Shown here piece by piece: positions 6,174-21,644 of a DNA stretch of 64,000 nucleotides (position 1 is its first letter; each line of letters begins with the position of its first letter). The position numbers and the translations under genes are program-made. Source of the stretch: Pirellulales bacterium (GTDB taxonomy: Bacteria; Planctomycetota; Planctomycetia; Pirellulales; PALSA-1355). The stretch covers positions 64,001-128,000 of the forward strand of contig CAVTBU010000008.1 in NCBI GenBank assembly GCA_963733035.1. The letters are read 5' to 3'. The notes beneath the pieces are model-generated. The model was not told the DNA's origin and searched no databases. It saw only the letters and a program-made list of their open reading frames with translations.

Positions 6174-6255
6174 GGAGGGTAAGCGAATGGCTAGCGGCGA
6201 CACTGGAAATGTCGTGCCGGGTAACCGGTTGCGGGTTCGAGTCCCGTGCCCTCCG
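6174..6255 (+). tRNA. tRNA-Ser(GGA); integration target; CCA not encoded
   Basis: Acceptor GGAGGGT/GCCCTCC plus discriminator G; anticodon arm CGACA-CTGGAAA-TGTCG; long variable arm GCCGG-GTAA-CCGGT; T-arm GCGGG-TTCGAGT-CCCGT. Confidence 0.93.
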
Positions 6256-6257
6256 CT
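6202..6257 (+). repeat. att core, left copy (3' half of tRNA-Ser from the anticodon arm)
   Basis: ACTGGAAATGTCGTGCCGGGTAACCGGTTGCGGGTTCGAGTCCCGTGCCCTCCGCT, identical to 22932-22987. Confidence 0.95.
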
Positions 6258-6308
6258 GTTTCGTAGCAATGACTTGCGTCGATGGTGGTATTGCACATTT
6301 CCGGTCGA

Positions 6309-7496
6309 TCAGGCGTGTTTTACTGCCAATTGACTGCCATTCTCGGAATGGTCGGCGATCATGAGTGAGTCCATCTTCGCCGCGGCGTCAATCTGCATAC
6401 TCGGCATGACGTGGGAGTAGGTATCCATCGTCAGGCTGATCTGTGAATGCCCTAACCGCTCTTGAACCACCTTCATGTGGACGCCCTGACTCAACAGTTG
6501 TGTGGCGTGCGTGTGCCGCAGATCGTGGAAACGGACCATACGGAGCCCTGCCCGCTTGAGTAGCGGCTTGAACTCGTCGGCGTGGAAATGACTCCGCCGC
6601 AGCGGTCCGCCGTGCTGGTTGGTGAATACGTGCTCAGAACCAGCCAAGCCAGCCGCCACGGTCGCCTTGCGATGCCCTGATAGCTTGTCGATGACCTTGG
6701 AGCCGATTACCACCAGCCGACGGCTCTTGGCGCTCTTGGGCTCGGCGAGGGCCAGCTTGCCGTCAATCTCGGTCAGTGTCCGCCTGACGGAAACCGTGCC
6801 AGCCGATAGATCGATATCGGACCACTGGAGTCCGAACAACTCGCCGATACGCAGCCCGGAGCCAATCGCCAGCCAGTACAGAGCCTCCAGGCGGTCACCA
6901 TCCGCCGCGGCCAACAGCCTACCTACCTCTGACGTGTCGAGCGGCGTGATCTCGCTTTTGGGCACCCTGGGGGGCTCTACGGCGTCACAGACGTTCCGAA
7001 CCACGAGTCCCCACTTGAGCGCCTGCTTGAGAGCACGGTGCAGCACAGCATGAGCCAGACGTCTTGGGTTCGGTCCAATCCCGTCGCGCTCCATTTCGGA
7101 GTAGAGCGCCTGGACGTGCACCGGGGTGAGCTTCTGGAGTCCCACGCCGCCGATTCGCGGGTTGATGTGATTCTTCACGATGGCCTTGTAATTGTAGAAC
7201 GTCGTAGCGCGTACGGTCATGCGGGCAACGTCGTCAAGCCACTTTCCCAGGTACTCGGCAACTGTCTTGCGGGACGGATCTACGAGAGTCCCGGTCAGCT
7301 TGGACGACTGCACGCGAGTCAGTTCATCCTGAACAGCCTTTTTCGTCTTGCCGTATACCGTCCTGCGCTTCCGCTTGCCGTCGGCACCGTAGCCGACGCT
7401 AATCATCGCACACCAACGCCCATCGGGTCGCCGATATACCGAACCTTCGCCACGCCCTCGACGCGCTCGGCGTTTACTCTTCGTTGCGTCGACCAT
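6309..7496 (-). CDS. int: Tyrosine recombinase / phage integrase
   Basis: N-terminal RGRGEGSVYRRPDGRW; catalytic R in SGLRIGE, HxxR in FHDLRHT, LGHS and DTYSH. Confidence 0.96.
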   Translation of the reverse strand: MVDATKSKRRARRGRGEGSVYRRPDGRWCAMISVGYGADGKRKRRTVYGKTKKAVQDELTRVQSSKLTGTLVDPSRKTVAEYLGKWLDDVARMTVRATTFYNYKAIVKNHINPRIGGVGLQKLTPVHVQALYSEMERDGIGPNPRRLAHAVLHRALKQALKWGLVVRNVCDAVEPPRVPKSEITPLDTSEVGRLLAAADGDRLEALYWLAIGSGLRIGELFGLQWSDIDLSAGTVSVRRTLTEIDGKLALAEPKSAKSRRLVVIGSKVIDKLSGHRKATVAAGLAGSEHVFTNQHGGPLRRSHFHADEFKPLLKRAGLRMVRFHDLRHTHATQLLSQGVHMKVVQERLGHSQISLTMDTYSHVMPSMQIDAAAKMDSLMIADHSENGSQLAVKHA

Positions 7497-7498
7497 CC

Positions 7499-7717
7499 TT
7501 ATTTCCTCCCCTTGGTTTTCACGAGTCGCAGTCCAAGAAATGCCGCCAGCTTCTCCGCGGTTCCAAGCAGAATATCTTGCTGCCCGGACATGAACCGGCT
7601 TACAACCGGCTGGGGCACGCCCGACTCTTTGGCGATTCGATAGTACGACAGTCCGCTATCGGTCACGAACTGCCGTATCTGGTCGGCCGTCATTGTGTCT
7701 ACCTGTTGCTTTACCAT
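7499..7717 (-). CDS. Small XRE/Cro-like HTH regulator, directly upstream of int
   Basis: SYYRIAKESGVPQPVVSRFMSG HTH; stop codon 2 nt from the int start. Confidence 0.85.
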   Translation of the reverse strand: MVKQQVDTMTADQIRQFVTDSGLSYYRIAKESGVPQPVVSRFMSGQQDILLGTAEKLAAFLGLRLVKTKGRK

Positions 7718-7723
7718 ACTCTC

Positions 7724-7753
7724 CAGTATATATACTGATCGCAATATGGTCAA
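7724..7753 (-). promoter_or_regulatory. Promoter of the HTH-int operon with palindromic operator
   Basis: Minus strand TTGACC-17-TATACT; perfect palindrome CAGTATATATACTG (7724-7737) overlaps the -10. Confidence 0.7.
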
Positions 7754-8136
7754 GCGTTCAGTTGTGTCAAAAATCCCGCCCGGCGCCTTTTCACTGACGC
7801 CGGACGGGTCGCTGTCGGGGCCCGTCTTCACTCGGGTCCGGACCTAGGAGTTGGCTTGTCACTGGCTCACGCCCCTCAATCGCCGCGTGGCGTTCGCCCC
7901 CTTGCGCCTCGATGATCTTGGTTCCAAGTAGCAGCGCACACGCTCGGCCAGCAGGGACGCGTCAAAGGGCCCCTAGCGGCTGCCGACCCAAGTATCGCGT
8001 GGGTGGATTTGCGCGCGTTAGGCGGCGCGTGTGGCGCTCGACGCGCAGGCGATGGCATGGTCGCACCGCGAACCACCCACCGATCCCGACGCAGCGGATC
8101 ATGTGAACACCGCCCCTTCACGTCGCGCTGGAGGCA

Positions 8137-9915
8137 TCATTCGGTCCGCGCGATCTCAATTTCGCGTCCACCATCGACACAGAAAATCCTAAAGCGCACG
8201 ATTGCCTTGTCGTGAATCGCAGTGGTCAGCTCAGCCAGCTCGCTGACAGCCTTGGCACGCTCGCGATTGATCGGCAATTCCGTCTGCATTTGGACAAACA
8301 AGGTTTTCGCGCGTTCAATCCGCTGCAGAGCAGCCGCTTTCAACGCCGCGACCTGTGGTGCCGCCATGTTATCACCATACCGAGCTACTAGTGCATTCAA
8401 GTCAGCGGTGGAATTTTTTACCTCAGCTTCTGCCACCGGTATACTGGCGACTTGCTTCTCAACCAGCGAGTTTAGCTGTCGCAGTAATGTCTGCACTCGG
8501 TCGACTGTCCACGCGTACTCCTTCCGGTCGAACGGCATCATTATTGGCTCGAACCGCACCTGTAAAATGGACTTCCCCGTACCTGACAAGGAGATTTCGA
8601 TGCCGGCCTGTGGCAGTTCATCACGAATTGCGATTCGCAACTTGGAGCCCACCTTTGCAACACGGTCGCTCGGATAGAATGCCCGGGCCGTTGCGCCTTC
8701 GATGCTCAACACTTCAACACGCAGTGAGCGCGGATCAGCTACATCGACGTGCGACAATGTAATTGGGATGGAAGTTTTCGATCGAGTCAGATCGACGGCG
8801 ATCCCTTTGAGAATCAACGTATTTTGACGGTCAACCGAGGGCTTTTGCGAGTCTTTTTTCGGCTGAACCGGCCTACCCATGTCGGGTGACAGTGGCAGCT
8901 GTGTCGGATTGCTCGGAAGAAGCTTCTCTTGGACCTCTCGCTTCAGATCCGGATGGACATCGAACTGTTCCATAAGTTCGTCTACCGCGCGGAGACCAAG
9001 TCGTGTAGCAAGTAAAGGCTTTGAGTCCTTAATTTTGATTGCCTCGCTAATAGCCATCTCGTACAGCACGTAGCGCATCCAATTCTGCTCTTGTGTTTTG
9101 GCCGCGTTCAAATAGTCTTCTGGGTTAAGTTCACCTTCGACGGTGATCGCCTTTCTGGCCTTTGCCTGCTGCTCCGGAGTGGGAACCGGGAGCTTGCCGT
9201 TCCCATTCAATCCCCTGGGTGGCCTCGCGGTGGGGACGACTGGAAGCGTTCTGCCCTTAGTCAATTCGGCAGTGGGTTGCGGCACGTTGCTTGGTACGTT
9301 GTCTTGCCTTGCTCGCGGATTTGGCCTGAGCTGTGGACTGTTTTCGCGAATGGGTTTGTTCTGCTTTTTTGGCAGACCGGCGACCTTTGTGGGGTTGGTC
9401 CCCTGCGGCCTTCCGAGGACCTTGTCAAAATCGATCAAAAACGTTGCCGTAATCACGGCAGCAATTATCGCTACACCGCCGATGATGATTGCAACACCGT
9501 GGTTGCTGCGCCGTCGACGGCGCGGTACCGCGCGTATTCGCGGTTCGACGAACGTTGCGGGTGCCTGAACCGGCGTCGTCGCGGCGACGGCCGGCAATGG
9601 CGATGCGGCAAAATGAGGTGGGGGAGTGATGTCTTCAGGCGGCGACAGCTTTCGACGCAGCTGCTGATCGTATTCCACCTTTGAGGTGGGATTCAACAAG
9701 CAGACTTTCGCGCGAGCTATCTCATTCAGGATCCGCTGCGAAAGCTCAGACTGCGGGCCAATCTTGTAGCTTTGGATGTGCGCCATCTGGCGCTCGCCGG
9801 CAGACTGTATCACTTCCCTGTCGGATTCAAAGTGCTCCAGACCAAGCAACCGATAGTGGTCAGGTGGCTGGTTTTCTGGCCGAATTCCCAGCCACTTGTA
9901 GTATGGATCGAACAC
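8137..9915 (-). CDS. Membrane-anchored protein with N-terminal J-domain-like module lacking HPD
   Basis: GTG start with GGAGG RBS; FDPYYKWLGI..QPPDHYRLLGL...LNEIARAKVCLLNPTSKVEYDQQLR; one TM helix (GVAIIIGGVAIIAAVITATFLI); C-terminal coiled coil. Confidence 0.75.
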   Translation of the reverse strand: MFDPYYKWLGIRPENQPPDHYRLLGLEHFESDREVIQSAGERQMAHIQSYKIGPQSELSQRILNEIARAKVCLLNPTSKVEYDQQLRRKLSPPEDITPPPHFAASPLPAVAATTPVQAPATFVEPRIRAVPRRRRRSNHGVAIIIGGVAIIAAVITATFLIDFDKVLGRPQGTNPTKVAGLPKKQNKPIRENSPQLRPNPRARQDNVPSNVPQPTAELTKGRTLPVVPTARPPRGLNGNGKLPVPTPEQQAKARKAITVEGELNPEDYLNAAKTQEQNWMRYVLYEMAISEAIKIKDSKPLLATRLGLRAVDELMEQFDVHPDLKREVQEKLLPSNPTQLPLSPDMGRPVQPKKDSQKPSVDRQNTLILKGIAVDLTRSKTSIPITLSHVDVADPRSLRVEVLSIEGATARAFYPSDRVAKVGSKLRIAIRDELPQAGIEISLSGTGKSILQVRFEPIMMPFDRKEYAWTVDRVQTLLRQLNSLVEKQVASIPVAEAEVKNSTADLNALVARYGDNMAAPQVAALKAAALQRIERAKTLFVQMQTELPINRERAKAVSELAELTTAIHDKAIVRFRIFCVDGGREIEIARTE

Positions 9916-9987
9916 TTTTCTGTCGCCTCCGTTTTTGCGTGCGTCTCCTCTGCCCTGCTCGCAAGCCCGGCGGCTTAGCACCTTGCC

Positions 9988-10016
9988 ATGATACGAGCGG
10001 GCTCTTAATTGATCAA
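9988..10016 (-). promoter_or_regulatory. Sigma70-type promoter of the J-like gene
   Basis: Minus strand TTGATC-17-TATCAT. Confidence 0.55.
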
Positions 10017-10059
10017 CCTGACCCGAATTGCGGTAGTGTCCTAACAGTGAGGTGGTCCC

Positions 10060-10299
10060 GTGATTGATACCTATCCGCGTCATATCTTGGAGCTGATCGC
10101 GGCCTGCCGCCAGAATCGTGGCCTGGACCCTCGCGACGTACTGGATGCAATCGACGATCCCCAGTGGGAGCGGGCTTGCCACACTAACGACTGGCGTTCT
10201 GTTGTCGTGGATTCCGTCGTCGATATATGGCCTTTTTTGGGGGTTGAGGCGAGGTTGGTGGCCTATCTAACTGCTTCTGTCGAGGTGGCGATTCAGTAA
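10060..10299 (+). CDS. Small hypothetical protein (79 aa)
   Basis: GTG preceded by GAGGTGG inside the left IR; globular-looking PQW...DWR...IW pattern; overlaps the 3' end of the convergent HEPN-like ORF. Confidence 0.5.
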   Translation: MIDTYPRHILELIAACRQNRGLDPRDVLDAIDDPQWERACHTNDWRSVVVDSVVDIWPFLGVEARLVAYLTASVEVAIQ

Positions 10300-10789
10300 T
10301 CTTTTTGGCTTGCTTTCGGATGAAATCATCCAGATATCCTACCGCCAGCTCGATGGATTGTCTCGAAGCGTGCAGGCGCTTGTAACCGTAGATTCGCTTT
10401 ACAAATTCCCGAATTGCCTGAACCTGCTGTTCAATCTCGATGTCATCCAGCGAAACGACACGCGGATGGTGCGCTGCATGATTGCGAATTAGTCTGAGCG
10501 CATCGAGCAGGTCGCACACTTCGTGAGCCAGGAGGCCAAAGGCCCGGCACATGGTTATTTTCATGCCGAACGAATAGAGCGGCGACGTAAAGGTATCTAG
10601 CAGCCTGCCTCGGAGATCTGAGTTCAGTCCTTCTCTTGCAAAAGTCTCCCGTAAAAGATCCTCCATTCGATCGTTCAATACCTCGCATCCGATTAGAGGA
10701 CATGCACGATCGGAATCAGACCACATCGCGCTGGTCGTAAGTAGCCAATCCACTAAGGATTTCTTACGTCTATTTTTCTTGCCGCTCAT
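10184..10789 (-). CDS. MltR-like HEPN-superfamily protein (putative RNase)
   Basis: SDRAC..IG...L...L..LL, PLYSFGMKI..CRAFGLL, and RxxxxH motif RNHAAH. Confidence 0.72.
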   Translation of the reverse strand: MSGKKNRRKKSLVDWLLTTSAMWSDSDRACPLIGCEVLNDRMEDLLRETFAREGLNSDLRGRLLDTFTSPLYSFGMKITMCRAFGLLAHEVCDLLDALRLIRNHAAHHPRVVSLDDIEIEQQVQAIREFVKRIYGYKRLHASRQSIELAVGYLDDFIRKQAKKITESPPRQKQLDRPPTSPQPPKKAIYRRRNPRQQNASR

Positions 10790-10871
10790 ACGTTAGCCCC
10801 TTGGGCGTGGCGTAGTGCGGTCCCTGCCTTATACGCTCACGGATTCGGTGTGCAAATCACCGCACGTCCAT

Positions 10872-11039
10872 TCAGCGGCGTTTAGCGGCCTTTAGAAGCA
10901 CCTCACGCGCCCAGGTGGACGTGTTGCCGTCTGCGGCCTTCTCAAGCTGCTTTAGCTCGGATTCGCTCAAGCGAATCTGAAAGCGTATGTCGCGTCGCTC
11001 CGCGTCGTCTTTTGGGGGTCTACCCCTTTGTGATTCCAT
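10872..11039 (-). CDS. Small ribbon-helix-helix-like DNA-binding protein (55 aa, not in the ORF track)
   Basis: MESQRGRPPKDDAERRDIRFQIRLSESELKQLEKAADGNTSTWAREVLLKAAKRR; divergent from the transposase. Confidence 0.75.
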   Translation of the reverse strand: MESQRGRPPKDDAERRDIRFQIRLSESELKQLEKAADGNTSTWAREVLLKAAKRR

Positions 11040-11045
11040 GACAGG

Positions 11046-11105
11046 ATTGTACAGACAAAAAATATTCGTGCAAGCTATTTACCGCCGATTAAATGTCTGT
11101 ACAAT
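11046..11105. promoter_or_regulatory. Inverted-repeat operator pair between the RHH and transposase genes
   Basis: ATTGTACAGACA (11046-11057) and TGTCTGTACAAT (11094-11105), perfect 12-bp IR in an AT-rich spacer. Confidence 0.65.
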
Positions 11106-11248
11106 AAATTATGTTGGGAACGGCAATTCCCAATAAAAAACCCCGACTCGGCCCTGGCAGGCTGAATCGGGGGACAAACAACCAGGCTCTCGCTAGGCTG
11201 CTGTGACAAGCCAATTCTAGCGGAAGCCGTAACCAAGGCTACCCCGCG

Positions 11249-12283
11249 ATGATGATGATTGCTTGTGCCCATGCGACGTTCCAGAAATACGGCAAAGACC
11301 GCAAGGGAAACCAGCGGTTTAAGTGCTCGCTGTGCGGCAAGCGATGGACGGAAGAACACGCCAAGCCGCTCGGCGAGATGCGCGTGCCGGTCGAAACCGC
11401 CAAACTCGCGCTCCGTCTGCTGACGGAAGGCATGAGCATCCGCGCCACGGAACGCACAACCGGCTTGCACCGAGACACGATTTGCAAACTGCTGGTGTTA
11501 TTTGGCGATGCCTGCCAGCGGTTTTTAGACGAGCGTATGCGTGGGCTCACACTGTCTCATCTGCAATTCGACGAACAGTGGACTTACGTCTACAAGAAAC
11601 AATCTCGGCTCACCACGACCGAGCGCGAGCGATCGAGCGAGCAAGGCGATATGTACTTGTGGACGTGAGTGGACCAGAAAACGAAGCTCATGCCCGCGTT
11701 CCTGATCGGCAAGCGTTCGGCCGACAATGCCCGCCGTTTTATGATGGACGTTGCGAACCGGCTGGTGTTCCCAAAGCCGCACCAGAGCGATGACCAGAGC
11801 TATACAAAGCCTGGATACCAGCCCATTACTCAAATTTCGACGGATGGCTTCCCGGCCTACCCCGAGGCCGTGGACCTGGCTTTCGGTCCCTACGTCAAGT
11901 TCGGCACGATCATAAAGGAGTACCGCAACGCGAGCATGATCTATACGCCCTCAGAAATGGTCGGTACGAAGCGGACGGGCGTTCGCGGGATAAGCGGCCG
12001 GAACCAGCGGACGATATGTACCTCGCACGTGGAGAGGTTGAACGGCACCCAGCGGCTATTTATGAAGCGTCTCAACCGGTTGACCTACTGCTTTTCCAAG
12101 AAACTACGGAACCTGGACGCGGCATTCGCCATGTTCGCGGCCTACTACAACTTTTGCTGGCAGACCCGCAAGCCGGGCAAGTCGGGGCAGAAACGGGGGA
12201 CCGCCGCGATGATGGCTGGACTGGCCGGCCACGTGTGGAGCTTCGACGAACTATTCGATGAGGCAATTGCCAAAATTGCCTGA
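11249..12283 (+). pseudogene. IS1-family transposase (Zn ribbon, HTH, DDE) interrupted by an in-frame TGA at 11666-11668
   Basis: KYGKDRKGNQRFKCSLCG, EGMSIRATERTTG, QFDEQWTYV, YLWT*VDQKTKL, STDG, TSHVERLN; both ORFs are in the same frame. Confidence 0.88.
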
Positions 12284-12331
12284 CCCCCCGTTATGGTTGA
12301 AGCCGGACGCACATTCGAGTAGTCTGCTGGC

Positions 12332-12919
12332 ATGATTTGTCGAATCGCACGTATATCGGCCGTTTTGGTATATTTCGCATTATCTGCGGACGCGCCTGCG
12401 CAAGACATAATTCAATTTACAAATCCACCCGGAAATGGCACCGTTCAACTGCAAATATGGCCGATGTCGGTCGCAGGACCGCAAGCCAATTTCATCCTAA
12501 AGCCCGGTCAAAGCATGCCGGTTCAGCTAGTATCGCAGGGAAAATTCAACATCCGCAGCCTGCAATGGAGCCCAGACGGGAACACCTGCACTCGCTGGCT
12601 CGTACAGAATTTGGATCTCCATGCGATCGCAGATGGATCAGTCCTATCGATCAAGCTTTATGCATCTCGGGAAGCGATGTGGGAGCGATTTGATGGGCAA
12701 TACATGCAGGTGGCAGTGCCTCCAGGAGATTCAAAATGCATCTGGGAATTCACGACAATACCGACGGCGGTAGAATCACCTCCCCTGCTGGAGCCGATAG
12801 AAACAGAGCCTGCGCCTACCGGTGTGCAGCAGTACGCAACTGTTTCCATGCCAGCTGGATGCCCGGTAATTGGGCATGATCCGCCGAGAGAACCAAAAAT
12901 CCCAAAACGTAAAAAGTAG
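12332..12919 (+). CDS. Hypothetical secreted protein (transposon passenger)
   Basis: Signal-peptide-like N-terminus, beta-rich core, basic Pro-rich tail. Confidence 0.65.
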   Translation: MICRIARISAVLVYFALSADAPAQDIIQFTNPPGNGTVQLQIWPMSVAGPQANFILKPGQSMPVQLVSQGKFNIRSLQWSPDGNTCTRWLVQNLDLHAIADGSVLSIKLYASREAMWERFDGQYMQVAVPPGDSKCIWEFTTIPTAVESPPLLEPIETEPAPTGVQQYATVSMPAGCPVIGHDPPREPKIPKRKK

Positions 12920-12934
12920 CAGGAAGGGATTGAT

Positions 12935-13543
12935 ATGGGGTCCGACGCAATTTGGGAAAAGCTGATGTCTCTCAGCATCGTTGCCGGCATGAATCAGCGG
13001 TATTCGCAGTACATGCTGACTAAGGCGGAGTGGTTCAGTAGTGCGATAGACGTTGCGGTTGTTGTCTTTACTATGCTCACCTTGGTTTTCGGGGTGGCTG
13101 CCTATTACAAGCCCGGGAATCTGATGCCCTTATTGCCATATTGGTGGAGCGGAACTGGATGGGGCGTATGGCGTGTTAAGTATAGTCGAATGGCTATCGC
13201 GATGTCGTTGTTCGCTGCGCTCAGTGGTGTGGTGCTCGTTGTCGTGCCAACAAACAAGTCAGTTCATTTCTATAGCACGATGCTTCAAAGCTGGAGCGAC
13301 CTGAGGCAGGACATAGATTCCGCAATTGTCGATTCCGACTCGCACACATTGATTTCCAATGAGCACGGTGAAATGTACCTGGAAAGGCGATATCGCGACC
13401 TGCTGGCAAAAAAGAATGCTCTAAATGCAAGGGAGCCATCTCCCGACCAAGAGCTTCTTGAGCATTTCTTAACGCTGGAAGAGCGGTCGAGGTCGGCCCA
13501 AGATGAAATAGCCGACCAGAAACCAGTCGCACTAAGGGAATAG
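12935..13543 (+). CDS. SLATT-like two-TM protein (transposon passenger)
   Basis: N-terminal helix with NQRY, two hydrophobic helices, then helical WSDLRQDID...RYRDL...LNAREP region. Confidence 0.6.
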   Translation: MGSDAIWEKLMSLSIVAGMNQRYSQYMLTKAEWFSSAIDVAVVVFTMLTLVFGVAAYYKPGNLMPLLPYWWSGTGWGVWRVKYSRMAIAMSLFAALSGVVLVVVPTNKSVHFYSTMLQSWSDLRQDIDSAIVDSDSHTLISNEHGEMYLERRYRDLLAKKNALNAREPSPDQELLEHFLTLEERSRSAQDEIADQKPVALRE

Positions 13544-13567
13544 ACAGAGGCAATTCAGAACCACAAC

Positions 13568-13594
13568 AGCCCCGGCCCCCTGCCGGGGCTTTTT
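13568..13594 (+). terminator. Intrinsic terminator after the SLATT-like gene
   Basis: AGCCCCGGC-CCCCT-GCCGGGGCT followed by TTTT. Confidence 0.8.
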
Positions 13595-13616
13595 CATGCG
13601 CGATAGAATGGTGCCT

Positions 13617-13751
13617 ATGAGCGAGATTCATTTCACCTATCACGCGTCTTCGACCTGGCTGCCGTGGGCTGGGGTTGCGTTTGGGCTGGCCATGATCATC
13701 GGCTGCTCCGTAGCACTCTGGCGTGGCAGACGCCGACCACCTCAGTCCTAG
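13617..13751 (+). CDS. Putative 44-aa single-TM peptide ending inside the right IR
   Basis: MSEIHFTYHASSTWLPWAGVAFGLAMIIGCSVALWRGRRRPPQS; TAGAAT 7 nt upstream of the ATG. Confidence 0.4.
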   Translation: MSEIHFTYHASSTWLPWAGVAFGLAMIIGCSVALWRGRRRPPQS

Positions 13752-13802
13752 GACACTACCCGAATTGCATGGGGTTTTGGATTCTGATAGCCTTTTTCTG
13801 CC

Positions 13803-15692
13803 ATGTCCCACCCGCCAATAGGCATTGACCTTGGAACGACTTACTCGGTCATCGCGTTCGTTGATGACACTGGTCGCCCTACGTCAATTGCGAACGAAGA
13901 CGGGGAAATTCTAACGCCGAGTGCGATTTCAATTGACCAGGGCGAAGTTGTCGTTGGAAAAGAGGCGATAAAGCAGGCCATATTCGAGCCATCGGTTTTT
14001 GCTGACTGCTTCAAGCGTGACATGGGGCGATCGCACTATCACCGGCCGATTGCGAAAAGACGGATTCCGCCTGAAGTCTTAAGCGCTTTTATCTTAAGGC
14101 GCCTCAAGCAGGACGCAGAACGCCGACTCGGACCAATTAGGCAAGCGGTTATTACCGTTCCAGCCTTTTTTGACGAAACACGCCGTCGCGCGACTCAAGA
14201 GGCCGGTAGGATCGCGGGACTCGAAGTCCTCGACATAATCAATGAGCCGACCGCAGCTGCTGTAGCGTTTGGCTACCAATCATCGACCGAGCATGAACAC
14301 GTTTTGGTCTACGACTTGGGTGGCGGAACGTTTGACGTGACCGTTTTGCAGATTGATGGCAAGAAGTTCCGCACATTGGCAACCGATGGCGATGTTCAAC
14401 TCGGGGGCAGGGACTTTGATGAGCGCCTTGTGAATCACGTAGCGGATAAGTTTAAGGACGCACATGGGTCCGACCCTCGCAGTGACCCCCACGATGCGGC
14501 CCAACTATGGCAGAATGCCCAAGACGCAAAACATACGCTTTCTCAAAGGTCCAGTGTGGCGATTCCATGCTTTCATACCGGTATCAGAATGCGGGTCGAC
14601 CTTACTCGTTCCGAATTCGAGGAAATGACCGCGGACTTGATCGAGAGAACAGAAACCACGACTCAACTTGTCTTGAGACAAGCGAAACTGGATTGGAGTA
14701 AGATCGACCGGGTGCTTCTTGTCGGCGGGTCGACAAGAATGCCGAAGGTATCTGAGATGCTGCAGCGCGTTTCAGGAAAGGAGCCCGACCGATCAATGTC
14801 GCCGGACGAAGCGGTGGCCCACGGGGCAGCACTTTATGCCGGCCAACTTATGGCTGAACCCAGTCTGCCCCAGTCGTCAGCCTTTGAGCTTGTCAATGTG
14901 AACTCGCATAGCCTGGGCATAATTGGCATAGATCAGCGAGAGGACCGCTACCGAAATATCATCATAATCCCAAAGAACACACCGCTCCCCTGCAAGGTTG
15001 TTCGCAAGTTCGCTACTGCGCGAGAGAATCAAAACAGTGTTCGCGTCGTCGTCGTGGAAGGTGAAAGCGAACGACCAGAACACTGCATCGAACTTGGCGT
15101 ATGCGTGGTTCGCAATTTGCCGCCAGGACTGCCAAAGGGAACAAGAATAGAAGTCGAATATAGCTATGCGGCAAATGGTCGAATCTCGGTTCGTGCCCGA
15201 GTGCCGAAGGCACGTCAGTCGGCCGCAGTAGATTTGCAGTACGATGCTGCGTTGAACTTGGGCTTGAACGATTGGAAGACGAAGATTTGTGGTGATGAGC
15301 CAGCAGAAATTGTTGAGGGCGAAGACGAACTCGACAAATTCGTAAAGTACCTTGATGAGCTACTTGTTTCGATGGGACAGCGCGCCGCCAAGCTACGTCT
15401 GCCCGCCATATTTCAACGGAAACAGGTGGACGCAGTCGATGTCGCGGAAGAGTTACGATCGCTAACCACAGGCTATCTGGAGGCCGAACGGAATCGGCAG
15501 TCAGCCGTTGGTCAGTCTGAGATTCTCAAAACATCTGCCGCTCTATCGCAATTGACGGTCGCAATGGAGCTTGCGGAGGTCAAATTGCGATCAGCCTATC
15601 GCGCGCTCGCGCAGGCATGCGTCGAGGCGGAATACGCCCCTGAACCCCTTGCAGGTTTATACAACGAAATCAAGCGGGTTCACTCAGCATGA
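13803..15692 (+). CDS. Specialised Hsp70 (DnaK-like paralogue) with non-canonical C-terminus
   Basis: IGIDLGTTYS, ITVPAFF, INEPTAAA, YDLGGGTFDVT, LLVGGSTRMPKV, PDEAVAHGAA; beta-sandwich SBD; helical tail unlike the DnaK lid. Confidence 0.93.
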   Translation: MSHPPIGIDLGTTYSVIAFVDDTGRPTSIANEDGEILTPSAISIDQGEVVVGKEAIKQAIFEPSVFADCFKRDMGRSHYHRPIAKRRIPPEVLSAFILRRLKQDAERRLGPIRQAVITVPAFFDETRRRATQEAGRIAGLEVLDIINEPTAAAVAFGYQSSTEHEHVLVYDLGGGTFDVTVLQIDGKKFRTLATDGDVQLGGRDFDERLVNHVADKFKDAHGSDPRSDPHDAAQLWQNAQDAKHTLSQRSSVAIPCFHTGIRMRVDLTRSEFEEMTADLIERTETTTQLVLRQAKLDWSKIDRVLLVGGSTRMPKVSEMLQRVSGKEPDRSMSPDEAVAHGAALYAGQLMAEPSLPQSSAFELVNVNSHSLGIIGIDQREDRYRNIIIIPKNTPLPCKVVRKFATARENQNSVRVVVVEGESERPEHCIELGVCVVRNLPPGLPKGTRIEVEYSYAANGRISVRARVPKARQSAAVDLQYDAALNLGLNDWKTKICGDEPAEIVEGEDELDKFVKYLDELLVSMGQRAAKLRLPAIFQRKQVDAVDVAEELRSLTTGYLEAERNRQSAVGQSEILKTSAALSQLTVAMELAEVKLRSAYRALAQACVEAEYAPEPLAGLYNEIKRVHSA

Positions 15693-15785
15693 TGTAAACA
15701 CCGCTCAATGTGCTGTTGGCGAAAACAGAGCCGCGGTTCGCGACGCCACGGCTCGCCGAATTGTCAAAGAGCCTCGCGAGACCAA

Positions 15786-16508
15786 TTACCTCTGTGGGTC
15801 AACTTCGATGTCGACGATTTCAGACAGCAGGACGGCTTGCCCGCGGCGGTCGTAGCACGTGTTTCCCTTGAGTGATGGCTGGCCGGCAAACACGTAGAAG
15901 ATCGCAGTGCGCAGAGCATCGGGCCGATCGGAAGGGCCGCGAAACTTCACAATACAAGGCTTGGACGCGTCCATGAGCTCGGCCATTAAGTCGATGCCGT
16001 AACACTCAGAACGGCAGATGTCCTCGACAAGCTCGGGAAACTCCAGGTAGGAGCGACTTACTTCCCGACTGAACACTGCATCGCGAACAAGCATCCCGAA
16101 TGGACCGGAATAACCGGCGGAAGACTCTCGCATTTTTTTCCAATGATGCCCGTTGTTGCCGGCGCCATGTTCGACCCTCTCGCGAAACTCGGCCTTTTGG
16201 TCTGCCACCAAGCGGTTGCCGATAAGACGGTCTACCATCTGCCAAATTCGCTCAGTCATTGCCTCGCGCGGCAGGATTCCCTCACGCCGAAAGGATTCCG
16301 GGGCGATCGTCCGGGTAGCATGGAACCAGTAGATCGCATCGAATGAGCAGTCACGACCGACCACCGCTTCCCAAAGCGCTTCCGGCCCATCCTCAAACGA
16401 CTTGCCGACTCGTTGCAGCCGATGCGTTAGTTCGTAATGCTCGATGCCAATGATCGAGCAAAGCGACTGAGTCGCGGACGTCAGATTTGAGCAGTCGAGG
16501 GTTTTCAC
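15786..16508 (-). CDS. Hypothetical protein, possibly ADP-ribosyltransferase-like fold
   Basis: YWFHATRT..ESFRREGILP; last gene of the terS-terL run. Confidence 0.65.
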   Translation of the reverse strand: MKTLDCSNLTSATQSLCSIIGIEHYELTHRLQRVGKSFEDGPEALWEAVVGRDCSFDAIYWFHATRTIAPESFRREGILPREAMTERIWQMVDRLIGNRLVADQKAEFRERVEHGAGNNGHHWKKMRESSAGYSGPFGMLVRDAVFSREVSRSYLEFPELVEDICRSECYGIDLMAELMDASKPCIVKFRGPSDRPDALRTAIFYVFAGQPSLKGNTCYDRRGQAVLLSEIVDIEVDPQR

Positions 16509-16514
16509 GGTTGG

Positions 16515-17192
16515 TCATCCTGCTTGTGGCTGCGAGTTGTACTTCTCCCGAAGGCCCAGGGACACAATGGCGAACGTCGTCAGGCAGTACGTGGCCAGAG
16601 CCCGGTTGGCCGCGATCGCGATGAAATGTTTTAGCCCTACCAATTCGTCCCCGGTAAGGAAGTGCGCGTCTAGCAAGCCCACGGCCAGGCGGTAAGCCGC
16701 GCCAGCTCGATACGCGTGAGTCTGCGGGTCGTCGCCATGCGGGTACAACTCCGCGCGGTGTTGGCCGTCTTCCGCCAATTGCACGAAATTGGCGGTCGCA
16801 TTGGTGGGTTTCGTGCAGCCGTCGCATTGGAACCTTTCGCCCTTTTCATCGAACCTTACGCGGCCGGCCCCTTCATGAACAAAATCGGCGAAAGCACAAG
16901 GGCCGGCGGGTGACGGCAGAAGACCCGCGTTGTTTGCGACTGTCAGAGCGATTCTCGCGGCCGTTTCCTCACGTGTGACGGGCATCTTGACCAGGACCGA
17001 CGGGGCCGCAGGCGTGAATTGCACGCAGGATTCGCCGACCTGATAGGTGCTTTCCAGACGGGGACGCCGCCGCAAGTCCTTCATGCCGACTTCGACGATC
17101 TCCATGAAGGGGAGCATCGCGAGTGCGGTCTTCGCAGGAATATAGGTTTCAAGTGACCCGAACGCTAAGTAGGAATTGGTTTGCGGGAGCAT
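16515..17192 (-). CDS. Hypothetical protein downstream of terL
   Basis: ATG with AAGGA upstream; 225 aa; CDGC pair; no recognised family. Confidence 0.6.
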   Translation of the reverse strand: MLPQTNSYLAFGSLETYIPAKTALAMLPFMEIVEVGMKDLRRRPRLESTYQVGESCVQFTPAAPSVLVKMPVTREETAARIALTVANNAGLLPSPAGPCAFADFVHEGAGRVRFDEKGERFQCDGCTKPTNATANFVQLAEDGQHRAELYPHGDDPQTHAYRAGAAYRLAVGLLDAHFLTGDELVGLKHFIAIAANRALATYCLTTFAIVSLGLREKYNSQPQAG

Positions 17193-17275
17193 CTGTATCC
17201 ATCCTTGAGAGAAAGTTGAGGTTAAACGGAAACCGGGGCGACCGACGCAAGTTTCCCTGATGTTTGTGTGAGGAA

Positions 17276-18724
17276 TCACCAGCCATACATTTCATTTGGC
17301 AACATCAACGGCCGGGGTGCGGGACACTGAATAACCTCTTCGATGTGCATGACGGATGGTCCGCACCGCATCGCGTCCGCGGCAATGGGGATTGCGATCG
17401 ACAACGCTATCGCTCGGTCCGCGTGGCCCAAGATCTTGTCGCTGGGGGCCGTTAGCTTATAGCCGTAGCTCTTCTCGACAATTTGCAGCCGGCACAGATC
17501 AGTAATCAGGTCGGGCTCGCGATACAGTTCGACGGTTCGGCCACGAAACGCTTGCAGCAGCGTGCTTGCCATTGTGTCGAGATGCTTGCCGATGAAGGGA
17601 ACTTCAAGCATGTTCACGCCGTCACGTCGTAGCGACTGCGACATAAAGCTGGCTTGGTGAGGATCGTAGCCGATCGTCAATCCTCGAAACCGACGGGACG
17701 CCTCAAGCACGCAGTCCTTGACTAGCAACAGATCGACTTCGCCGCCGGGCTCAGGCGCCGAACTTTGGCAGTCGGCAAGATACATTCGCTCCGTGTCGCT
17801 ATCGACGGCCAGGACGACTAGGGCCGCGTGATCGCGCTTCACCCCAAGATCCAGGCCGGCCACATAACCGAATCGACCAGCGTAGTCTTCGATTGGACCG
17901 TCAAGCGTGATTGCGGCCTCGATATCTGCGACGTCCAGGCAATCGCCGCCGGAACTCCAGACCCCTCCGAACAGGCGATTGAAACGACTGGCGGTGCTTC
18001 GACGTCGGGCATCCTCGATGCCGGCAGGATCGTGATAGGGCGCAGGGCCCGTAATCGTTCGGAATTGCCAGCGTTCGGGCTGAGACTGCACTGCTTCGCG
18101 GAGTCGATATTGCCACGAGTCGACGTTGCCCGCGTTCATGGCAAGCATGACAAGTCCGTGGGGAACCTTTTCAGAGTTGTCCAACAAATTGAACACAAAT
18201 TCTTCTGAAACGATGCACGTCAGTTCATCGACGAAAAGCGCGTCGGGTAGCGCGCCTTGGCTTCCGGCTTCGTCGGCGGGAATGATTTCGGCGAGCGCCT
18301 CAGTGTCGGAGCACACGATTTGCCACTTGTCGACACGGACCCGGTTCGCAAGCCATGGCATCGCCTGGGTGATCTTGACGGCCGCCATCCGTACTTCAGC
18401 CGCTTGGTCTTTGTCCGCGGCCGCAATTTGAATCCGCAGCATGCGGCGTGAAAACGCGATCATCCACAGCACGGTCAAAGCGATCATCCACGATTTGGCG
18501 TAACCTTTGGTTGCCTCCAACCAGAACCGACGAATTGGGGCGGGTCGTCCCTGCATCGCGGCAATGGCGGCGGGCTCAAGCGCAACCAGCATGTCGCGCT
18601 GGGCGGGCACTTTGACGTCGCCGAAACGGCGCAGACCGGTAGCGGTGTGCACGGGCATGTCGTCCGCAAAATCCGCCAGGCTGCCGCGGTAGTGAGCAAT
18701 CTGATCCGGGGTCAGGTTTCGCAT
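17276..18724 (-). CDS. terL: Terminase large subunit
   Basis: Walker A-like ATKGYAKS, AAADKDQA, Walker B LFVDE; RNase H-like nuclease acidic motifs AGLDLG, GYDPHQ, HADRAIA; start could extend to 18895. Confidence 0.85.
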   Translation of the reverse strand: MRNLTPDQIAHYRGSLADFADDMPVHTATGLRRFGDVKVPAQRDMLVALEPAAIAAMQGRPAPIRRFWLEATKGYAKSWMIALTVLWMIAFSRRMLRIQIAAADKDQAAEVRMAAVKITQAMPWLANRVRVDKWQIVCSDTEALAEIIPADEAGSQGALPDALFVDELTCIVSEEFVFNLLDNSEKVPHGLVMLAMNAGNVDSWQYRLREAVQSQPERWQFRTITGPAPYHDPAGIEDARRRSTASRFNRLFGGVWSSGGDCLDVADIEAAITLDGPIEDYAGRFGYVAGLDLGVKRDHAALVVLAVDSDTERMYLADCQSSAPEPGGEVDLLLVKDCVLEASRRFRGLTIGYDPHQASFMSQSLRRDGVNMLEVPFIGKHLDTMASTLLQAFRGRTVELYREPDLITDLCRLQIVEKSYGYKLTAPSDKILGHADRAIALSIAIPIAADAMRCGPSVMHIEEVIQCPAPRPLMLPNEMYGW

Positions 18725-18791
18725 GGCTTGTAAACGCCGGGCAACCGCCACGCCTGGAGGGAGACGCAGCAGCGCCCAGCGCGCAAAAGTT

Positions 18792-19346
18792 TTAGTTGGG
18801 CTGGTGTGTCTCGGGTGACTGCGAATTGCCGCTAGGGCCGATTTGCTGGCCTCCAGGCTGCTTGCCGTCAGAGGTTGAGCTTTCATGCAATCCATCGCCG
18901 CGTTGCATCCAGACGGCGTCTGTGGGCAGCGCCCACGGGTCGACCGCTTCGCCGTCGGTGTCGAGTCCTAACCGTCGAATCGCCTTGTCGCGGGCATCGC
19001 ACGCCGCGGCCATCGTCGCCCAAAGGGCTTGCTGATCTGCCAGCGATGCATCCTTTCCCCTGTCTCGAAACGCTCGGGCGGCGTACAAGTAGCGCAACTC
19101 TGCACGCGTAGCCCCGTTGATAACTACTGCATGGGATGCGCCCACATGGCCGTGCAACTCGCAAACGGCATCTTCGAGCCCCCGTCGAAAGCGATTGACG
19201 GCCCCACGGACCCCCGGCATCCACTTGGGAACACCGCCGATCGTGAGGGCCGAGCGTAGACCGTGCAACATTCGATTGACGTTGCCCCGCGGTGCACCGC
19301 TGCGGTTCGGCTTGGAAGGCTCGTTTGGCAGTACGTTGGCAGTCAC
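18792..19346 (-). CDS. Putative terminase small subunit
   Basis: GAPRGNVNRMLHG motif typical of TerS-like N-termini; immediately upstream of terL. Confidence 0.6.
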   Translation of the reverse strand: MTANVLPNEPSKPNRSGAPRGNVNRMLHGLRSALTIGGVPKWMPGVRGAVNRFRRGLEDAVCELHGHVGASHAVVINGATRAELRYLYAARAFRDRGKDASLADQQALWATMAAACDARDKAIRRLGLDTDGEAVDPWALPTDAVWMQRGDGLHESSTSDGKQPGGQQIGPSGNSQSPETHQPN

Positions 19347-19396
19347 GTTTCACTAACCCTTTGCTAGTAGTAACTTACGGGGAGGCACAATCTACG

Positions 19397-19666
19397 CTAT
19401 GTCGTGCCGGCGCTCGCCCCTCCGCATCGGCAGCTTTCCTTGAGCCGTTCCAGATCCGCAGGGTCGATCCGCCTCGCAGATCCGAACCGGTAATAGGCCA
19501 ACTCGCCCCGGTCCATCAACTGGTACAGTGTCGTGCGCCCAAGTCCCAACAGGCTGGCAGCCTCTTTGACGGTCAGCAGCCGCTCGGATTGAACGTGCCG
19601 CGCCGTCAACTCGGGCAGCCCTGGATGGGGTTTGCAGGTGTCCCTGCGTGTGTGTGTGCTGCTCAT
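19397..19666 (-). CDS. Excisionase / HTH_17 DNA-binding protein
   Basis: LLTVKEAASLLGLGRTTLYQLMDRGEL...FGSARRIDPADL. Confidence 0.88.
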   Translation of the reverse strand: MSSTHTRRDTCKPHPGLPELTARHVQSERLLTVKEAASLLGLGRTTLYQLMDRGELAYYRFGSARRIDPADLERLKESCRCGGASAGTT

Positions 19667-19690
19667 TTCCTGCCCCGCAATTTCGTCAGT

Positions 19691-19843
19691 GCATCGGTGC
19701 GGTCGATCTTGTATCGTTGCGACCTCTTTTCAAACGCATCGGTACGTACGGTACGGGGCCTCTTATAAGGCCCCCGTACTGTACCGATGCGACTGCACCC
19801 GTACGGCTGTGTACCGTTGCGGTGTACCGTTGCGTACCGATGC
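19691..19843. repeat. Iteron-like array, putative replication origin of the element
   Basis: GTACCG(A/T)TGC at 19781, 19811, 19824 and 19834; inverted copies at 19736 and 19691; variant at 19711; arranged around the palindrome CTTATAAG. Confidence 0.75.
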
Positions 19844-19845
19844 GG

Positions 19846-21393
19846 TTAATTTTCATCGTCCACGACCCTGTAACCTTCGTAGCGGCGGCTGTTGGCCTTC
19901 GCGATTTCACACGGCTCCAGGTGGCCGGCGTCAAGCGCGGCGGCGAGCGCGGCGTCAAACGCTTGACCGTTGCGGCCGGTACGGGCGCGAATGTCTGTTT
20001 TGGTGCCTTGGTGGCCCGGCAGCTTGTGGCAGGCTTCGACAACCAGTTGCACGTCGCGCTCGAGCCCCTCGGCGCGCTTCTGGTCGGCCCGCTGTTCTTT
20101 GGCGGCCTCGGCCATGTCCGCGATGGCTGACGGCTCGAGGACCAATACGTGCCAGGTGCGGTTGCTGCCGGTGCCTTCGCAGATCTGCAAGCCGTGTAAG
20201 CCGCTGTGGCCAGCGCTGCCGCCGGTGACCATCCACAAGTGGTGCTCGCCGGTACCGGGCTCGTAGTCGCGTCTGCGGCTCAAGAGAAGCCATTGCCGGG
20301 CCCATTCGCTGGTACCGCTCCAAGAGACTTGCGTTAGCTCGGGCGGTGCGTGACGATTGTCGATGCCGCTTTTGCGAATGTGGTGGACCACGACCAGCGT
20401 GATGCCGATCTCTTCGCACATGCCTGACAGTTGACGTAGCTGCCGGCCGACTGCCATGAGGTTGCCGGCGTCGGCTGCGGCCAGCATGAAATACAGTGGG
20501 TCCACGATGGCAATTTCGATTCGTTCGCGCACCAGTGCACGGCGCAGGGCGGCCAGTTCGTCGGCGGCGTCGAGCCTGGGCACGACTGTGGTCCAAAACA
20601 AATTGCCAAGCTGGGCCAGCGTGGTGCCTTGGGCTGACGCGATGCGTTCCCCTGTTTCCCGCAGCGTCGAGCCGCCGCTTTCAGCGTTTGCGATCAGCAC
20701 GCGATAGGGTCGGGCGACTGAAAACCGGCCGAGAAACGGCTCGCCGCTGGCCAGGGCGATGCCCATCGCGACGCAGATCGTGCTTTTCATGCCCTTCAAC
20801 TGGGCTGCCACAACCATGGGCTGCCGTTCGGCCAGGATGCCTTCGATTGCGTACGTCGCTACATCATTTGTCGCGGCGAACGCAGGGCTGGGTGTCACGT
20901 CGATGCGAAACCCTTGGCTGTCGGCGGCGATGCCGTCCAGGTTGTCGCGGTGGTGGGCGTATGCTTCAGCGAATGGCTTCACTCGCAGATCTCGCAGAAA
21001 CGCCACGCCACTAAGATATCCCTCGCGTTTTGCTCGACAGTCGCGTGCCACGCGCAAGTAGTACGACGTGTTCGACGGCAGCGCATCGCCTGTGATGATC
21101 TCCGCCAGTTTCGCGGCGCCGCCGACGGCTTTGAGTCGGTCGGTGCGGGTCAATTCGCGGTGCAGGTTCGTCAGGTCAACGGGCTGCAGGTTCTCGCGTA
21201 GGGCCGCCATCGCCCCGAAGATTTCCGCATGCGGTTCGTGGTGAAAATCGGCGGCTTCGATTTGATGCTCGTCGATCACCCTAGGCAGCAGTAGACATGA
21301 TCGCAAGAGCATCTGCTCGCAGTGCTCGTCGCTGGGCATGCCCGCATCGAGAATCTCGCCATTTGTCCGGGCGCCGGCGCCGTTTTGCTTCAT
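19846..21393 (-). CDS. Replicative helicase: DnaB N-terminal-like domain fused to AAA_25 (RepA-like SF4) ATPase
   Basis: PSDEHCEQMLL..DFHHEPHAEIF..L..VGGAAKLAEI; KGMKST, NAESG, IVDPLY, VVVHHIRK. Confidence 0.85.
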   Translation of the reverse strand: MKQNGAGARTNGEILDAGMPSDEHCEQMLLRSCLLLPRVIDEHQIEAADFHHEPHAEIFGAMAALRENLQPVDLTNLHRELTRTDRLKAVGGAAKLAEIITGDALPSNTSYYLRVARDCRAKREGYLSGVAFLRDLRVKPFAEAYAHHRDNLDGIAADSQGFRIDVTPSPAFAATNDVATYAIEGILAERQPMVVAAQLKGMKSTICVAMGIALASGEPFLGRFSVARPYRVLIANAESGGSTLRETGERIASAQGTTLAQLGNLFWTTVVPRLDAADELAALRRALVRERIEIAIVDPLYFMLAAADAGNLMAVGRQLRQLSGMCEEIGITLVVVHHIRKSGIDNRHAPPELTQVSWSGTSEWARQWLLLSRRRDYEPGTGEHHLWMVTGGSAGHSGLHGLQICEGTGSNRTWHVLVLEPSAIADMAEAAKEQRADQKRAEGLERDVQLVVEACHKLPGHQGTKTDIRARTGRNGQAFDAALAAALDAGHLEPCEIAKANSRRYEGYRVVDDEN

Positions 21394-21590: not shown

Positions 21591-21644
21591 GTTCGATCCA
21601 TCGGCGGCCGGTTTCCTTTTGCCAGCGGGGGCCGGCCGCTATTT

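Follow-up and report, generated by a model that had tools for sequence, protein, structure and literature searches.

Can a small insertion sequence (IS) work as a carrier of toxin or defence genes? The question is raised by a locus in a Pirellulales bacterium (assembly GCA_963733035.1), which lies in a 64,000-nucleotide stretch of contig CAVTBU010000008.1 (positions 64,001 to 128,000 of the forward strand). We call this whole stretch the window and number it from its first letter; coordinates given after a locus label refer to that locus. A preliminary description of the window had proposed an IS1-family transposon with intact ends and with passengers on both sides of its transposase, nested in a phage satellite. 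Our analysis makes it very likely that positions 10032-13760 are a transporter IS (tIS) of a distant IS1-like clade that is common in Planctomycetota, with cargo bays arranged around a core of an RHH gene and a transposase. The term tIS is used in passages of PMC7986276 and PMC9330008 for an IS whose own inverted repeats (IRs) enclose passenger genes that have no part in transposition.

Ends of the element and its relatives

The unit is bounded on the left by a 26-bp inverted repeat (IRL, 10032..10057, plus strand, GGTAGTGTCCTAACAGTGAGGTGGTC) and on the right by a second one (IRR, 13735..13760, minus strand), the reverse complement of which is GGTAGTGTCCTAGGACTGAGGTGGTC. Both begin with GGTAGTG and are identical at 23 of 26 bases. 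They were read directly from the sequence, and an inverted-repeat search returned the pair as the longest inverted repeat across 9500-14300. Abutting the two repeats, again by direct reading, are the copies of a perfect 8-bp target site duplication (TSD), CGAATTGC, at 10024..10031 on the left and 13761..13768 on the right (neither assigned a strand). The ends and the duplication were therefore as the preliminary description had them, and so was the disproportion in length: from IR to IR the unit measures 3,729 bp, which is 3.6 times the 1,035 bp of the transposase frame (11249-12283). Every open reading frame (ORF) that had been listed for the element was confirmed to exist, and all five cargo ORFs are open. 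In the IS1 family, the terminal sequence follows the pattern GGnnnTG, the IRs are imperfect and measure about 25 bp, and target duplications are 8-9 bp long; both ends of the element satisfy GGnnnTG, and the imperfect 26-bp IRs and 8-bp TSD are likewise those of the family. The 8-bp duplication encloses the entire 3,729-bp unit, passengers included, as in a tIS. The unit was inserted whole, by DDE transposition with an 8-bp duplication.

With no mismatch allowed, the 12-nt IR core occurs at two sites in the window, namely the IRL and the IRR, against 0.05 expected. A further match with one mismatch, at 39823, was judged to be a chance occurrence, because neither a transposase nor an RHH gene lies near it. 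The TSD 8-mer is by itself common (10 copies in the window against 4.4 expected), and its weight therefore comes from its placement at both ends and from the 8-bp rule in relatives, not from rarity.

We scanned genome contigs with the transposase alignment and obtained 117 pattern matches, of which 103 were confirmed and 80 kept, giving 79 loci in 55 assemblies other than that of the window; 15 of the 55 assemblies hold two to four loci. IRs were detected in these loci using the window's 12-nt core with up to 2 mismatches. In 48 of the 79 loci, the transposase is flanked by an IRL on its upstream side and an IRR on its downstream side, and a perfect 8-bp TSD accompanies 43 of these 48 pairs. 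One more (L052) had a 9-bp TSD, and four (L028, L036, L045 and L062) had none. The remaining 31 loci comprised 19 with an IRR only, 2 with an IRL only and 10 with neither, some of them being cut by contig ends. The 43 TSD-verified elements ranged from 1,805 to 6,063 bp in length (median 3,648 bp), with left arms of 492-3,964 bp (median 2,033 bp) and right arms of 15-2,426 bp (median 445 bp). All 43 are longer than a bare transposase unit; the left arm falls below 1 kb in only one, and the right arm is 45 bp or shorter in 17 and longer than 500 bp in 20. The consensus of the IRs is GGTAGTGTCcTAAnanTGtGttGctgg. Among 88 IRs, G1, G2, T6 and G7 are invariant, positions 1-12 having served for detection, and positions 17-24, which were unused in detection, are also conserved. 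No target consensus was evident among the duplicated 8-mers.

Two relatives on alphaproteobacterial plasmids, whose transposases are 33% identical, have IRs that start with GGTAGTGTCTCAG and perfect 8-bp TSDs. These are a 4,224-bp element on a Hoeflea RefSeq plasmid (L080, 1591-5814) and a 2,634-bp element on an Acidiphilium RefSeq plasmid (L081, 2231-4864), both with left-arm cargo. Because TSDs enclose the long IR-to-IR unit in the relatives and in the plasmid elements, we take this long unit to be what moves across the clade. With 43 homologous, IR-bounded and TSD-flanked elements in genome contigs and 2 on plasmids, the search of relatives bore out the earlier view of an IS1-type element that has intact ends and moved as a unit.

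The two plasmid elements are annotated merely as an IS1 family transposase with hypothetical genes, and in L081 a RES-Xre toxin-antitoxin (TA) pair lies directly outside the IRR. Two same-orientation IRR-like ends were seen 3' of a single transposase in L062 (9873, 9898) and in L022 (3119, 4607); these may be alternative or nested ends.

The transposase, the RHH gene and the DNA between them

Profiles, relatives and an alignment identified the transposase (11249..12283, plus strand) as a single-frame, IS1-like protein with Zn-finger, HTH and DDE parts, present in the window as a pseudogene. ORFs 11249-11668 and 11669-12283 belong to one frame that is split by an in-frame TGA (11666-11668, codon 140). 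We searched with the 344-aa product in which the TGA was read through as X, and found 1,677 relatives (E ≤ 1e-3) out of 2,778 candidates. The 120 relatives listed are 339-395 aa long, 74-89% identical and mostly from Pirellulales or Planctomycetota; relatives that carry names are called IS1 family transposase among the matches listed. The top NCBIfam match was transpos_IS1, both for the window protein (E 1.8e-21) and for three intact relatives (E 1e-19 to 1e-22), with scores of 69-79 bits against a curated cutoff of 100 bits. IS1_IS1595_Zn exceeded its cutoff in the window protein and in one of the three intact relatives, and Pfam DDE_Tnp_IS1 scored 21.5 in the window transposase (cutoff 24.1). 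A plasmid search with a close relative gave 24-33% identity to the genes under the 12 matches listed, 5 of which are annotated as IS1 family transposase or IS1 transposase. Judged by its sequence, and given these profile matches, relatives' names and plasmid matches, the window transposase belongs to a distant IS1-like clade with one ORF.

Judged by these profile matches, the window transposase would share with the IS1 family an N-terminal zinc-binding region, an HTH and a DDE domain. In classical IS1, insA and insB' are joined by a programmed -1 frameshift, whereas the window clade has one long ORF and no two-ORF frameshift arrangement; the split in the window is a nonsense codon within the same frame. 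The clade further differs from the IS1 family in the size of its elements (1.8-6.1 kb), in having a separate RHH gene and in carrying cargo on one or both sides.

The column of the X is Cys in 14 of 14 aligned relatives, and D108, D199 and E262 are invariant. The TGA would most simply be a one-base nonsense change (TGY to TGA). Since the stop takes the place of a Cys that all 14 relatives have, the window copy appears to be non-autonomous through Cys140-to-stop, and it would be mobile only with a transposase supplied in trans. Apart from the stop, the window transposase is 89% identical to an intact relative. Decay is common in the family: of the 79 transposase matches, 7 are interrupted by internal stops or frameshifts, and a further count of partial matches comes to 12. 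Two observations on the truncated frame may be added. A GTG follows the nonsense TGA immediately and in the same frame (11666-11671), and a putative 139-aa N-terminal product, comprising the Zn-finger and HTH, could act as a trans inhibitor; such a product would presumably resemble the IS1 InsA repressor.

To separate core from cargo, we took every arm ORF from 44 elements (those of 43 loci and that of the window) and sorted them by clustering. One family, represented in the window by a 55-aa RHH DNA-binding protein with weak Pfam likeness to NikA-like and RHH_7 families (10872..11039, minus strand), occurs in 35 of the 44 elements, invariably as a minus-strand gene of the left arm. Three further elements have a second small cluster, one member of which matches Pfam RHH_1. 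The distance from the RHH start to the transposase start is 73-287 bp and usually about 200-230 bp, with 210 bp as the typical value. Only L011 departs from this, because a group II intron, with its reverse transcriptase at 5872-7245, has come to lie between the RHH gene and the transposase. Because the gene is near-universal at a fixed place and on a fixed strand, we consider it a core gene and putative regulator. It had earlier been counted among the passengers, a placement that the clustering overturns.

Next to the RHH gene, an inverted-repeat search found operator-like arms of 12 bp at 11046-11057 and 11094-11105 (the pair spanning 11046..11105, with no strand), each containing TGTACA; a promoter-like site (11078-11105) overlaps the right one. 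Of 34 intergenic regions, 17 have an exact inverted repeat (arms of 9 bp or more) that starts no more than 20 nt from the RHH start, against a mean of 0.17 and a maximum of 2 in 200 shuffles. The arm sequences vary between elements. These features suggest that the RHH protein is the element's repressor, which would act through the palindromes on its own promoter and on that of the transposase.

Similarity in DNA between elements begins about 100-130 nt 5' of the transposase ATG, and the transposase leader is structured (z -3.16). A terminator scan of the window found an intrinsic-terminator-like hairpin at 11141-11172 with a T-run at 11135-11140 (11135..11172, minus strand; dG -23.8, z -2.63). 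Within the 200 nt upstream of the transposase, 31 of the 44 elements have a minus-strand terminator-like site, 29 of them at a near-identical offset, and none of the 44 has one on the plus strand; shuffles gave an average of 1.4. Terminators were counted per sequence, as RNAalifold on a MAFFT alignment of the leaders gave 3 pairs and the alignment was too poor. The conserved site may end an antisense RNA against the transposase leader, or it may insulate the leftward genes. In IS10, RNA-OUT exerts antisense control over the transposase, and the minus-strand terminator would similarly suit a short antisense RNA over the transposase 5' end; unlike in IS10, a scan of the window for promoter-like sites found no antisense promoter for it, and the terminator could be an insulator.

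In overall layout, the core consists of a leftward RHH gene and a rightward transposase, separated by a spacer of about 210 bp with the palindrome pair and the opposite-strand terminator. Cargo occupies two bays, one from the IRL to the RHH gene and the other from the transposase stop to the IRR, and would serve to stabilise the element or to defend the host. In the window, such cargo would be, in the left bay, an RNase-type HEPN toxin with a conserved 79-aa neighbour and, in the right bay, a secreted protein with a two-transmembrane (2TM) membrane protein.

Cargo genes and the host island

In the left bay, one gene (10184..10789, minus strand) encodes a 201-aa protein with the motif R102-N103-x3-H107, which by profiles and by its model is MtlR/DUF4145-like. 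Alone in Pfam, the protein shows weak likeness to DUF4145 (0.0034), RiboL-PSP and Abi_2, below the cutoffs. A word-based homologue search gave one relative, and we used an exhaustive profile search instead, which found 4,967 representatives (E ≤ 1e-3). Among 40 aligned relatives, R102, N103 and H107 are invariant, and Pfam assigned DUF4145 to 21 of the 40 (best 2e-7), MtlR to 12 and Abi_2 to 8. Searched against the PDB, the profile matched MtlR (E 1.9e-4) and HepS (0.073). The predicted model has seven helices (pLDDT 89), and Foldseek matched it to MtlR/YggD with a probability of 1.0 and a target-normalised TM of 0.54-0.67. As stated in parts of PMC3710099, the DUF4145, MtlR and Abi_2-type families belong to HEPN, the HEPN RNase motif is Rx4-6H with a polar residue after the R in an all-helical domain, and certain MtlR-type HEPN domains are non-catalytic. 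Membership of the HEPN superfamily is well supported by the profiles and the model, and the protein is a putative RNase-type toxin. The HEPN-like gene that the preliminary description placed in the left arm is accordingly borne out by the profiles, the invariant motif and the match of the model to MtlR.

A 79-aa ORF (10060..10299, plus strand) begins 3 bp past the IRL and is convergent with the HEPN gene, the 3' end of which it overlaps by 116 bp; the RHH gene lies 82 bp upstream of the HEPN gene on the same strand. The 79-aa protein had no Pfam, NCBIfam, PADLOC, PHROGs or PDB match. Both genes occur together in L061 only, at the same positions. There, identity is 58% over 64 aa for the 79-aa protein and 33% for the HEPN protein, which retains its motif, and the DNA of the two elements is no longer alignable at the 79-aa ORF. 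This counterpart makes the 79-aa protein a possible partner of the HEPN protein. In a type II TA pair, the toxin is bound and neutralised by an antitoxin whose gene is co-transcribed with it; for the HEPN protein, the 79-aa or the RHH protein might play that part. A more remote HEPN relative lies left of the transposase in L076.

In the right bay, direct reading found a gene for a 195-aa protein with a signal-peptide-like N-terminus (12332..12919, plus strand). It belongs to no known family, with no Pfam, NCBIfam, PADLOC, Atlas, PHROGs or usable PDB match; searched by sequence against the PDB, the 79-aa, 195-aa and 2TM proteins all returned nothing usable. The 202-aa 2TM protein that follows (12935..13543, plus strand) has 12 relatives, with strongly conserved motifs that the window copy keeps. 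Its SLATT-like character is a lead from the Atlas language-model feature search, where SLATT_4 scored 0.92 (198 features in common) and the SLATT_4 set accounted for 19 of 30 matches. Pfam returned no SLATT match for the window protein at E ≤ 1, and its matches among the relatives were marginal (DUF4231 in 1 of 11 at 0.049, SLATT_fungal in 1 of 11 at 0.051). SLATT proteins have two TM helices with cytoplasmic helices on either side, and the earlier proposal of a SLATT-like gene has the two-TM helix layout of the model (pLDDT 80) in its favour, with helices 2-58 and 83-103 holding the hydrophobic runs and three more helices after them; Pfam gave it no usable E-value, and the fold search gave weak helical-bundle matches only (E > 0.05). 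The terminator scan found a hairpin with a T-run 3' of the 2TM gene (13568..13595, plus strand). A 51-aa ORF with one hydrophobic segment (13596..13751, plus strand), taken from the ORF listing, overlaps the IRR and is a candidate gene only. The earlier statement that passengers lie on both sides of the transposase therefore stands for the HEPN and 79-aa genes on the left and the three ORFs on the right, and needs amending in two respects, as the RHH gene is core and the transposase is broken.

Across the family, the cargo varies: any two elements have at most 57% of their length in common, and the common portion is the core. L003 and L007 carry a cluster of Panacea proteins in their left arm, L041 and L055 in their right arm, from which we conclude that one module can occupy either bay. 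A Pfam scan of 240 arm ORFs found SocA/Panacea in 4 elements, DUF6941 in 3, PemK/MazF in 2, ParE in 2, PIN in 2 (and PIN_10 in 1), Fic in 1, GmrSD in 2 and N6_N4 methylase in 2, in one case with Mrr_cat. NYN, protein kinase, Bro-N, HTH_3, HARE-HTH, SDH-type protease and DUF2335 were each found in a single element. Other mobile elements are nested in the cargo bays, with an IS256-family transposase in L002 (5720-6967) and IS21 istA/istB in L056 (5278-7318). PADLOC, run on 145 arm ORFs of at least 95 aa, gave matches in 7 elements: SoFic, type II methylases, HEC-06, HEC-09, PD-T4-6, PDC-S13 and PD-Lambda-5_B-like.

As a control, we drew 150 flank ORFs at random from 459 at the same loci, with the same ORF calling. 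Of the 145 arm ORFs, 17 had TA or defence domains, compared with 3 of the 150 controls (Fisher odds ratio 6.5, p = 9e-4); for any Pfam match, the figures were 32 of 145 and 77 of 150 (p = 2e-7), which leaves 113 of the 145 arm ORFs with no Pfam family. These counts support, without proving, an enrichment of TA and defence domains in the family's cargo. A catalogue of passengers between homologous IRs thus shows variable cargo that is enriched in such domains relative to flanks, and it supports the suggestion that the element is a vehicle for putative toxin or defence genes.

DUF6941 recurs as the first gene of plus-strand cargo operons whose last gene is Panacea, MazF or ParE (L007 5973-6410, L044 6464-6883, L057 6361-6804). 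GmrSD/HEC-06-type cargo lies directly 3' of the RHH gene in L024 (5842-7617) and L067 (5950-7570) and is split there into two or three ORFs, which suggests either that it is decaying or that a frameshift arose in sequencing. We also considered that cargo might be captured by end bypass, with remnants of IRs left inside the elements; this is unsupported, as a scan with the IR core found almost no internal copies.

The element itself sits in a 16.8-kb integrative island (6202..22987, no strand), located at a tRNA-Ser (6174-6256). A 56-bp direct repeat delimits it, the copy at 6202-6257 being identical to the one 16.7 kb downstream, at 22932-22987. An integrase gene (6309-7496; PHROGs 1e-82) lies within it, and PHROGs further matched repressor-type HTH proteins, a TerL-like protein (3e-18) and primase/helicase-like proteins. 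No capsid, portal or tail match to PHROGs was found among 12 island ORFs, and PADLOC matched none of the island genes. The three nested layers of the preliminary description are structurally real, with the 56-bp att repeat at the tRNA-Ser. A phage satellite has integrase, regulator and replication genes and a packaging-hijack gene but no full virion set; the further claim of such a satellite is plausible, though unproven, from the integrase, repressor-type, TerL-like and primase/helicase-like genes. To the left of the element is a gene for a 592-aa protein that starts at 9915 (minus strand), and to its right, at a distance of 35 bp, an Hsp70-like gene (13803-15692, plus strand); its insertion probably disturbs the divergent promoters of these two genes. 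The Hsp70-like gene matches a phage family of no assigned function (phrog_22485, 3e-112). Two other elements of the family lie within a few kilobases of Hsp70-like genes (L044 2616-4142; L046 32-283 and 742-1356), one of them with DUF2760. Outside the island, at 24674-28274 of the window, the frame of an AcrB-type transporter is broken into two neighbouring ORFs that cover profile positions 8-484 and 636-1019.

Known transposons and competing explanations

The window element is like a tIS in that its passengers lie inside its own IRs; it is unlike one in that cargo looks like the rule for the whole clade, with two bays and a conserved regulator gene. Passages of PMC7157771 describe Tn3-family transposons in which TA pairs lie beside the transposition genes and their promoters, with toxins that are exchanged and include ParE, PIN and HEPN. 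The IS1-like elements resemble these in having TA-type genes that adjoin the transposition genes and toxin types that vary among related elements. They differ in belonging to another transposase family, in lacking a resolvase and res, in being far smaller and in keeping the RHH gene while the toxins change. Tn7-like transposons, the cargo of which is dominated by defence systems and other mobile elements according to passages of PMC8649781, are tens of kilobases long, multi-protein and site-specific, whereas the IS1-like elements are 2-6 kb long, have a single transposase and show no evident target consensus. What appears to be new here is an IS1-like chassis that combines two cargo bays with a conserved regulator; the tIS and the presence of TA or defence cargo on transposons are known. 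Literature searches aimed at such elements found no IS1-family cargo elements with RHH, TA or defence genes; ISfinder was not compared. Long members are listed in the IS1 family of ISfinder.

Several points weigh against reading the locus as a tIS with cargo bays. The insertion was read from the IRs and the TSD of the occupied site, and no second copy of this exact element exists among the 79 loci (best match 85%). Of those loci, the 31 unpaired ones are partly unexplained, 10 of them showing neither end despite mostly long flanks, and the IR scan was seeded from the window's own core. The roles proposed for the RHH protein, the palindromes and the terminator are drawn purely from position and conservation. 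The right-bay genes have no counterpart in the other 79 loci, PADLOC matches none of the window's cargo, and the SLATT likeness lacks usable Pfam E-values and backing from the fold search. The cargo enrichment was calculated with a domain set picked after the arms had been viewed, with naive ORF calling and on elements that are not independent. We nonetheless consider a tIS with an RHH and transposase core to be very likely overall.

A phylum-spanning IS1-like clade may have evolved into dedicated mini-shuttles for TA and defence genes, with a fixed chassis and two exchangeable bays and with the RHH protein coupling cargo expression to transposition; we put this forward tentatively, at somewhat less than an even chance. 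To a similar degree, it is conceivable that the left-arm genes are not defence cargo at all and instead form an addiction or regulatory module integral to transposition, which would act through post-segregational killing and the tuning of transposition. The conserved RHH gene right beside the transposase promoter region, the predominance of TA types among the recognisable cargo (MazF, ParE, PIN, Fic, Panacea, HEPN) and the parallel with Tn3-family TA pairs described in parts of PMC7157771 all fit such a module. Yet in about half of the elements the RHH gene is solitary and convergent with plus-strand cargo, it also heads operons with GmrSD or kinase genes rather than TA toxins, and restriction-type cargo (methyltransferase with Mrr, GmrSD, NYN/HEC-09) better suits defence. 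The addiction and defence readings are compatible and not mutually exclusive.

It is unlikely that the element is a decaying relic with non-functional passengers and of structural interest only. The nonsense codon in the window transposase, the frequency of stops, frameshifts and partial copies in the family, the fragmented GmrSD cargo in L024 and L067 and the lack of relatives of the 51-aa ORF and the secreted protein in other elements would all agree with decay, but the five cargo ORFs are open and the HEPN R-N-x3-H motif is intact. Moreover, the 79-aa protein has kept its similarity to the L061 protein where the DNA is unalignable, the 2TM protein retains the motifs that are invariant in its family, and the transposase is otherwise close to its intact relative. 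An element that is still autonomous, its TGA being read through by selenocysteine insertion or other recoding, is very improbable. The stop does fall at a near-invariant Cys, the classical site for selenocysteine, and the remaining frame is intact; however, we rejected recoding on finding that the 60 nt 3' of the TGA fold worse than shuffles (z +1.28) with no SECIS-like fold, that an Rfam scan of 9500-14300 gave no match, and that a TGA at codon 140 is absent from every other locus of the 79, the TGY-to-TGA change requiring one base. We give a slightly lower probability still to a small IS lying by chance between unrelated IR-like sequences. The length of the element relative to its transposase and a TSD 8-mer that is not rare in the window would be expected in that case, but no IR-like sequence adjoins the transposase, and TSDs surround the full long unit in 43 of 48 relatives and in the plasmid relatives.

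Defence and TA cargo is known in large transposons such as Tn7-like and Tn3-family elements; here, it is found in a very small IS1-type element and clade-wide. One consequence for annotation is that, where such a gene is called IS1 family transposase, the genes beside it are part of the mobile unit. If the mini-shuttle proposal is true, the shuttle chassis would comprise the IRs, an RHH regulator that has operators of its own, a transposase whose leader is structured, and a terminator on the antisense strand. These elements of 2-6 kb would then rank among the smallest autonomous carriers of defence genes and would bring them into islands, satellites and plasmids. If confirmed, the family would offer a simple system for how an IS acquires and swaps cargo and, because 113 of the 145 arm ORFs have no Pfam family, a route to new toxin and defence genes. 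It would also explain how such genes arrive on islands and plasmids in Planctomycetota and Alphaproteobacteria.

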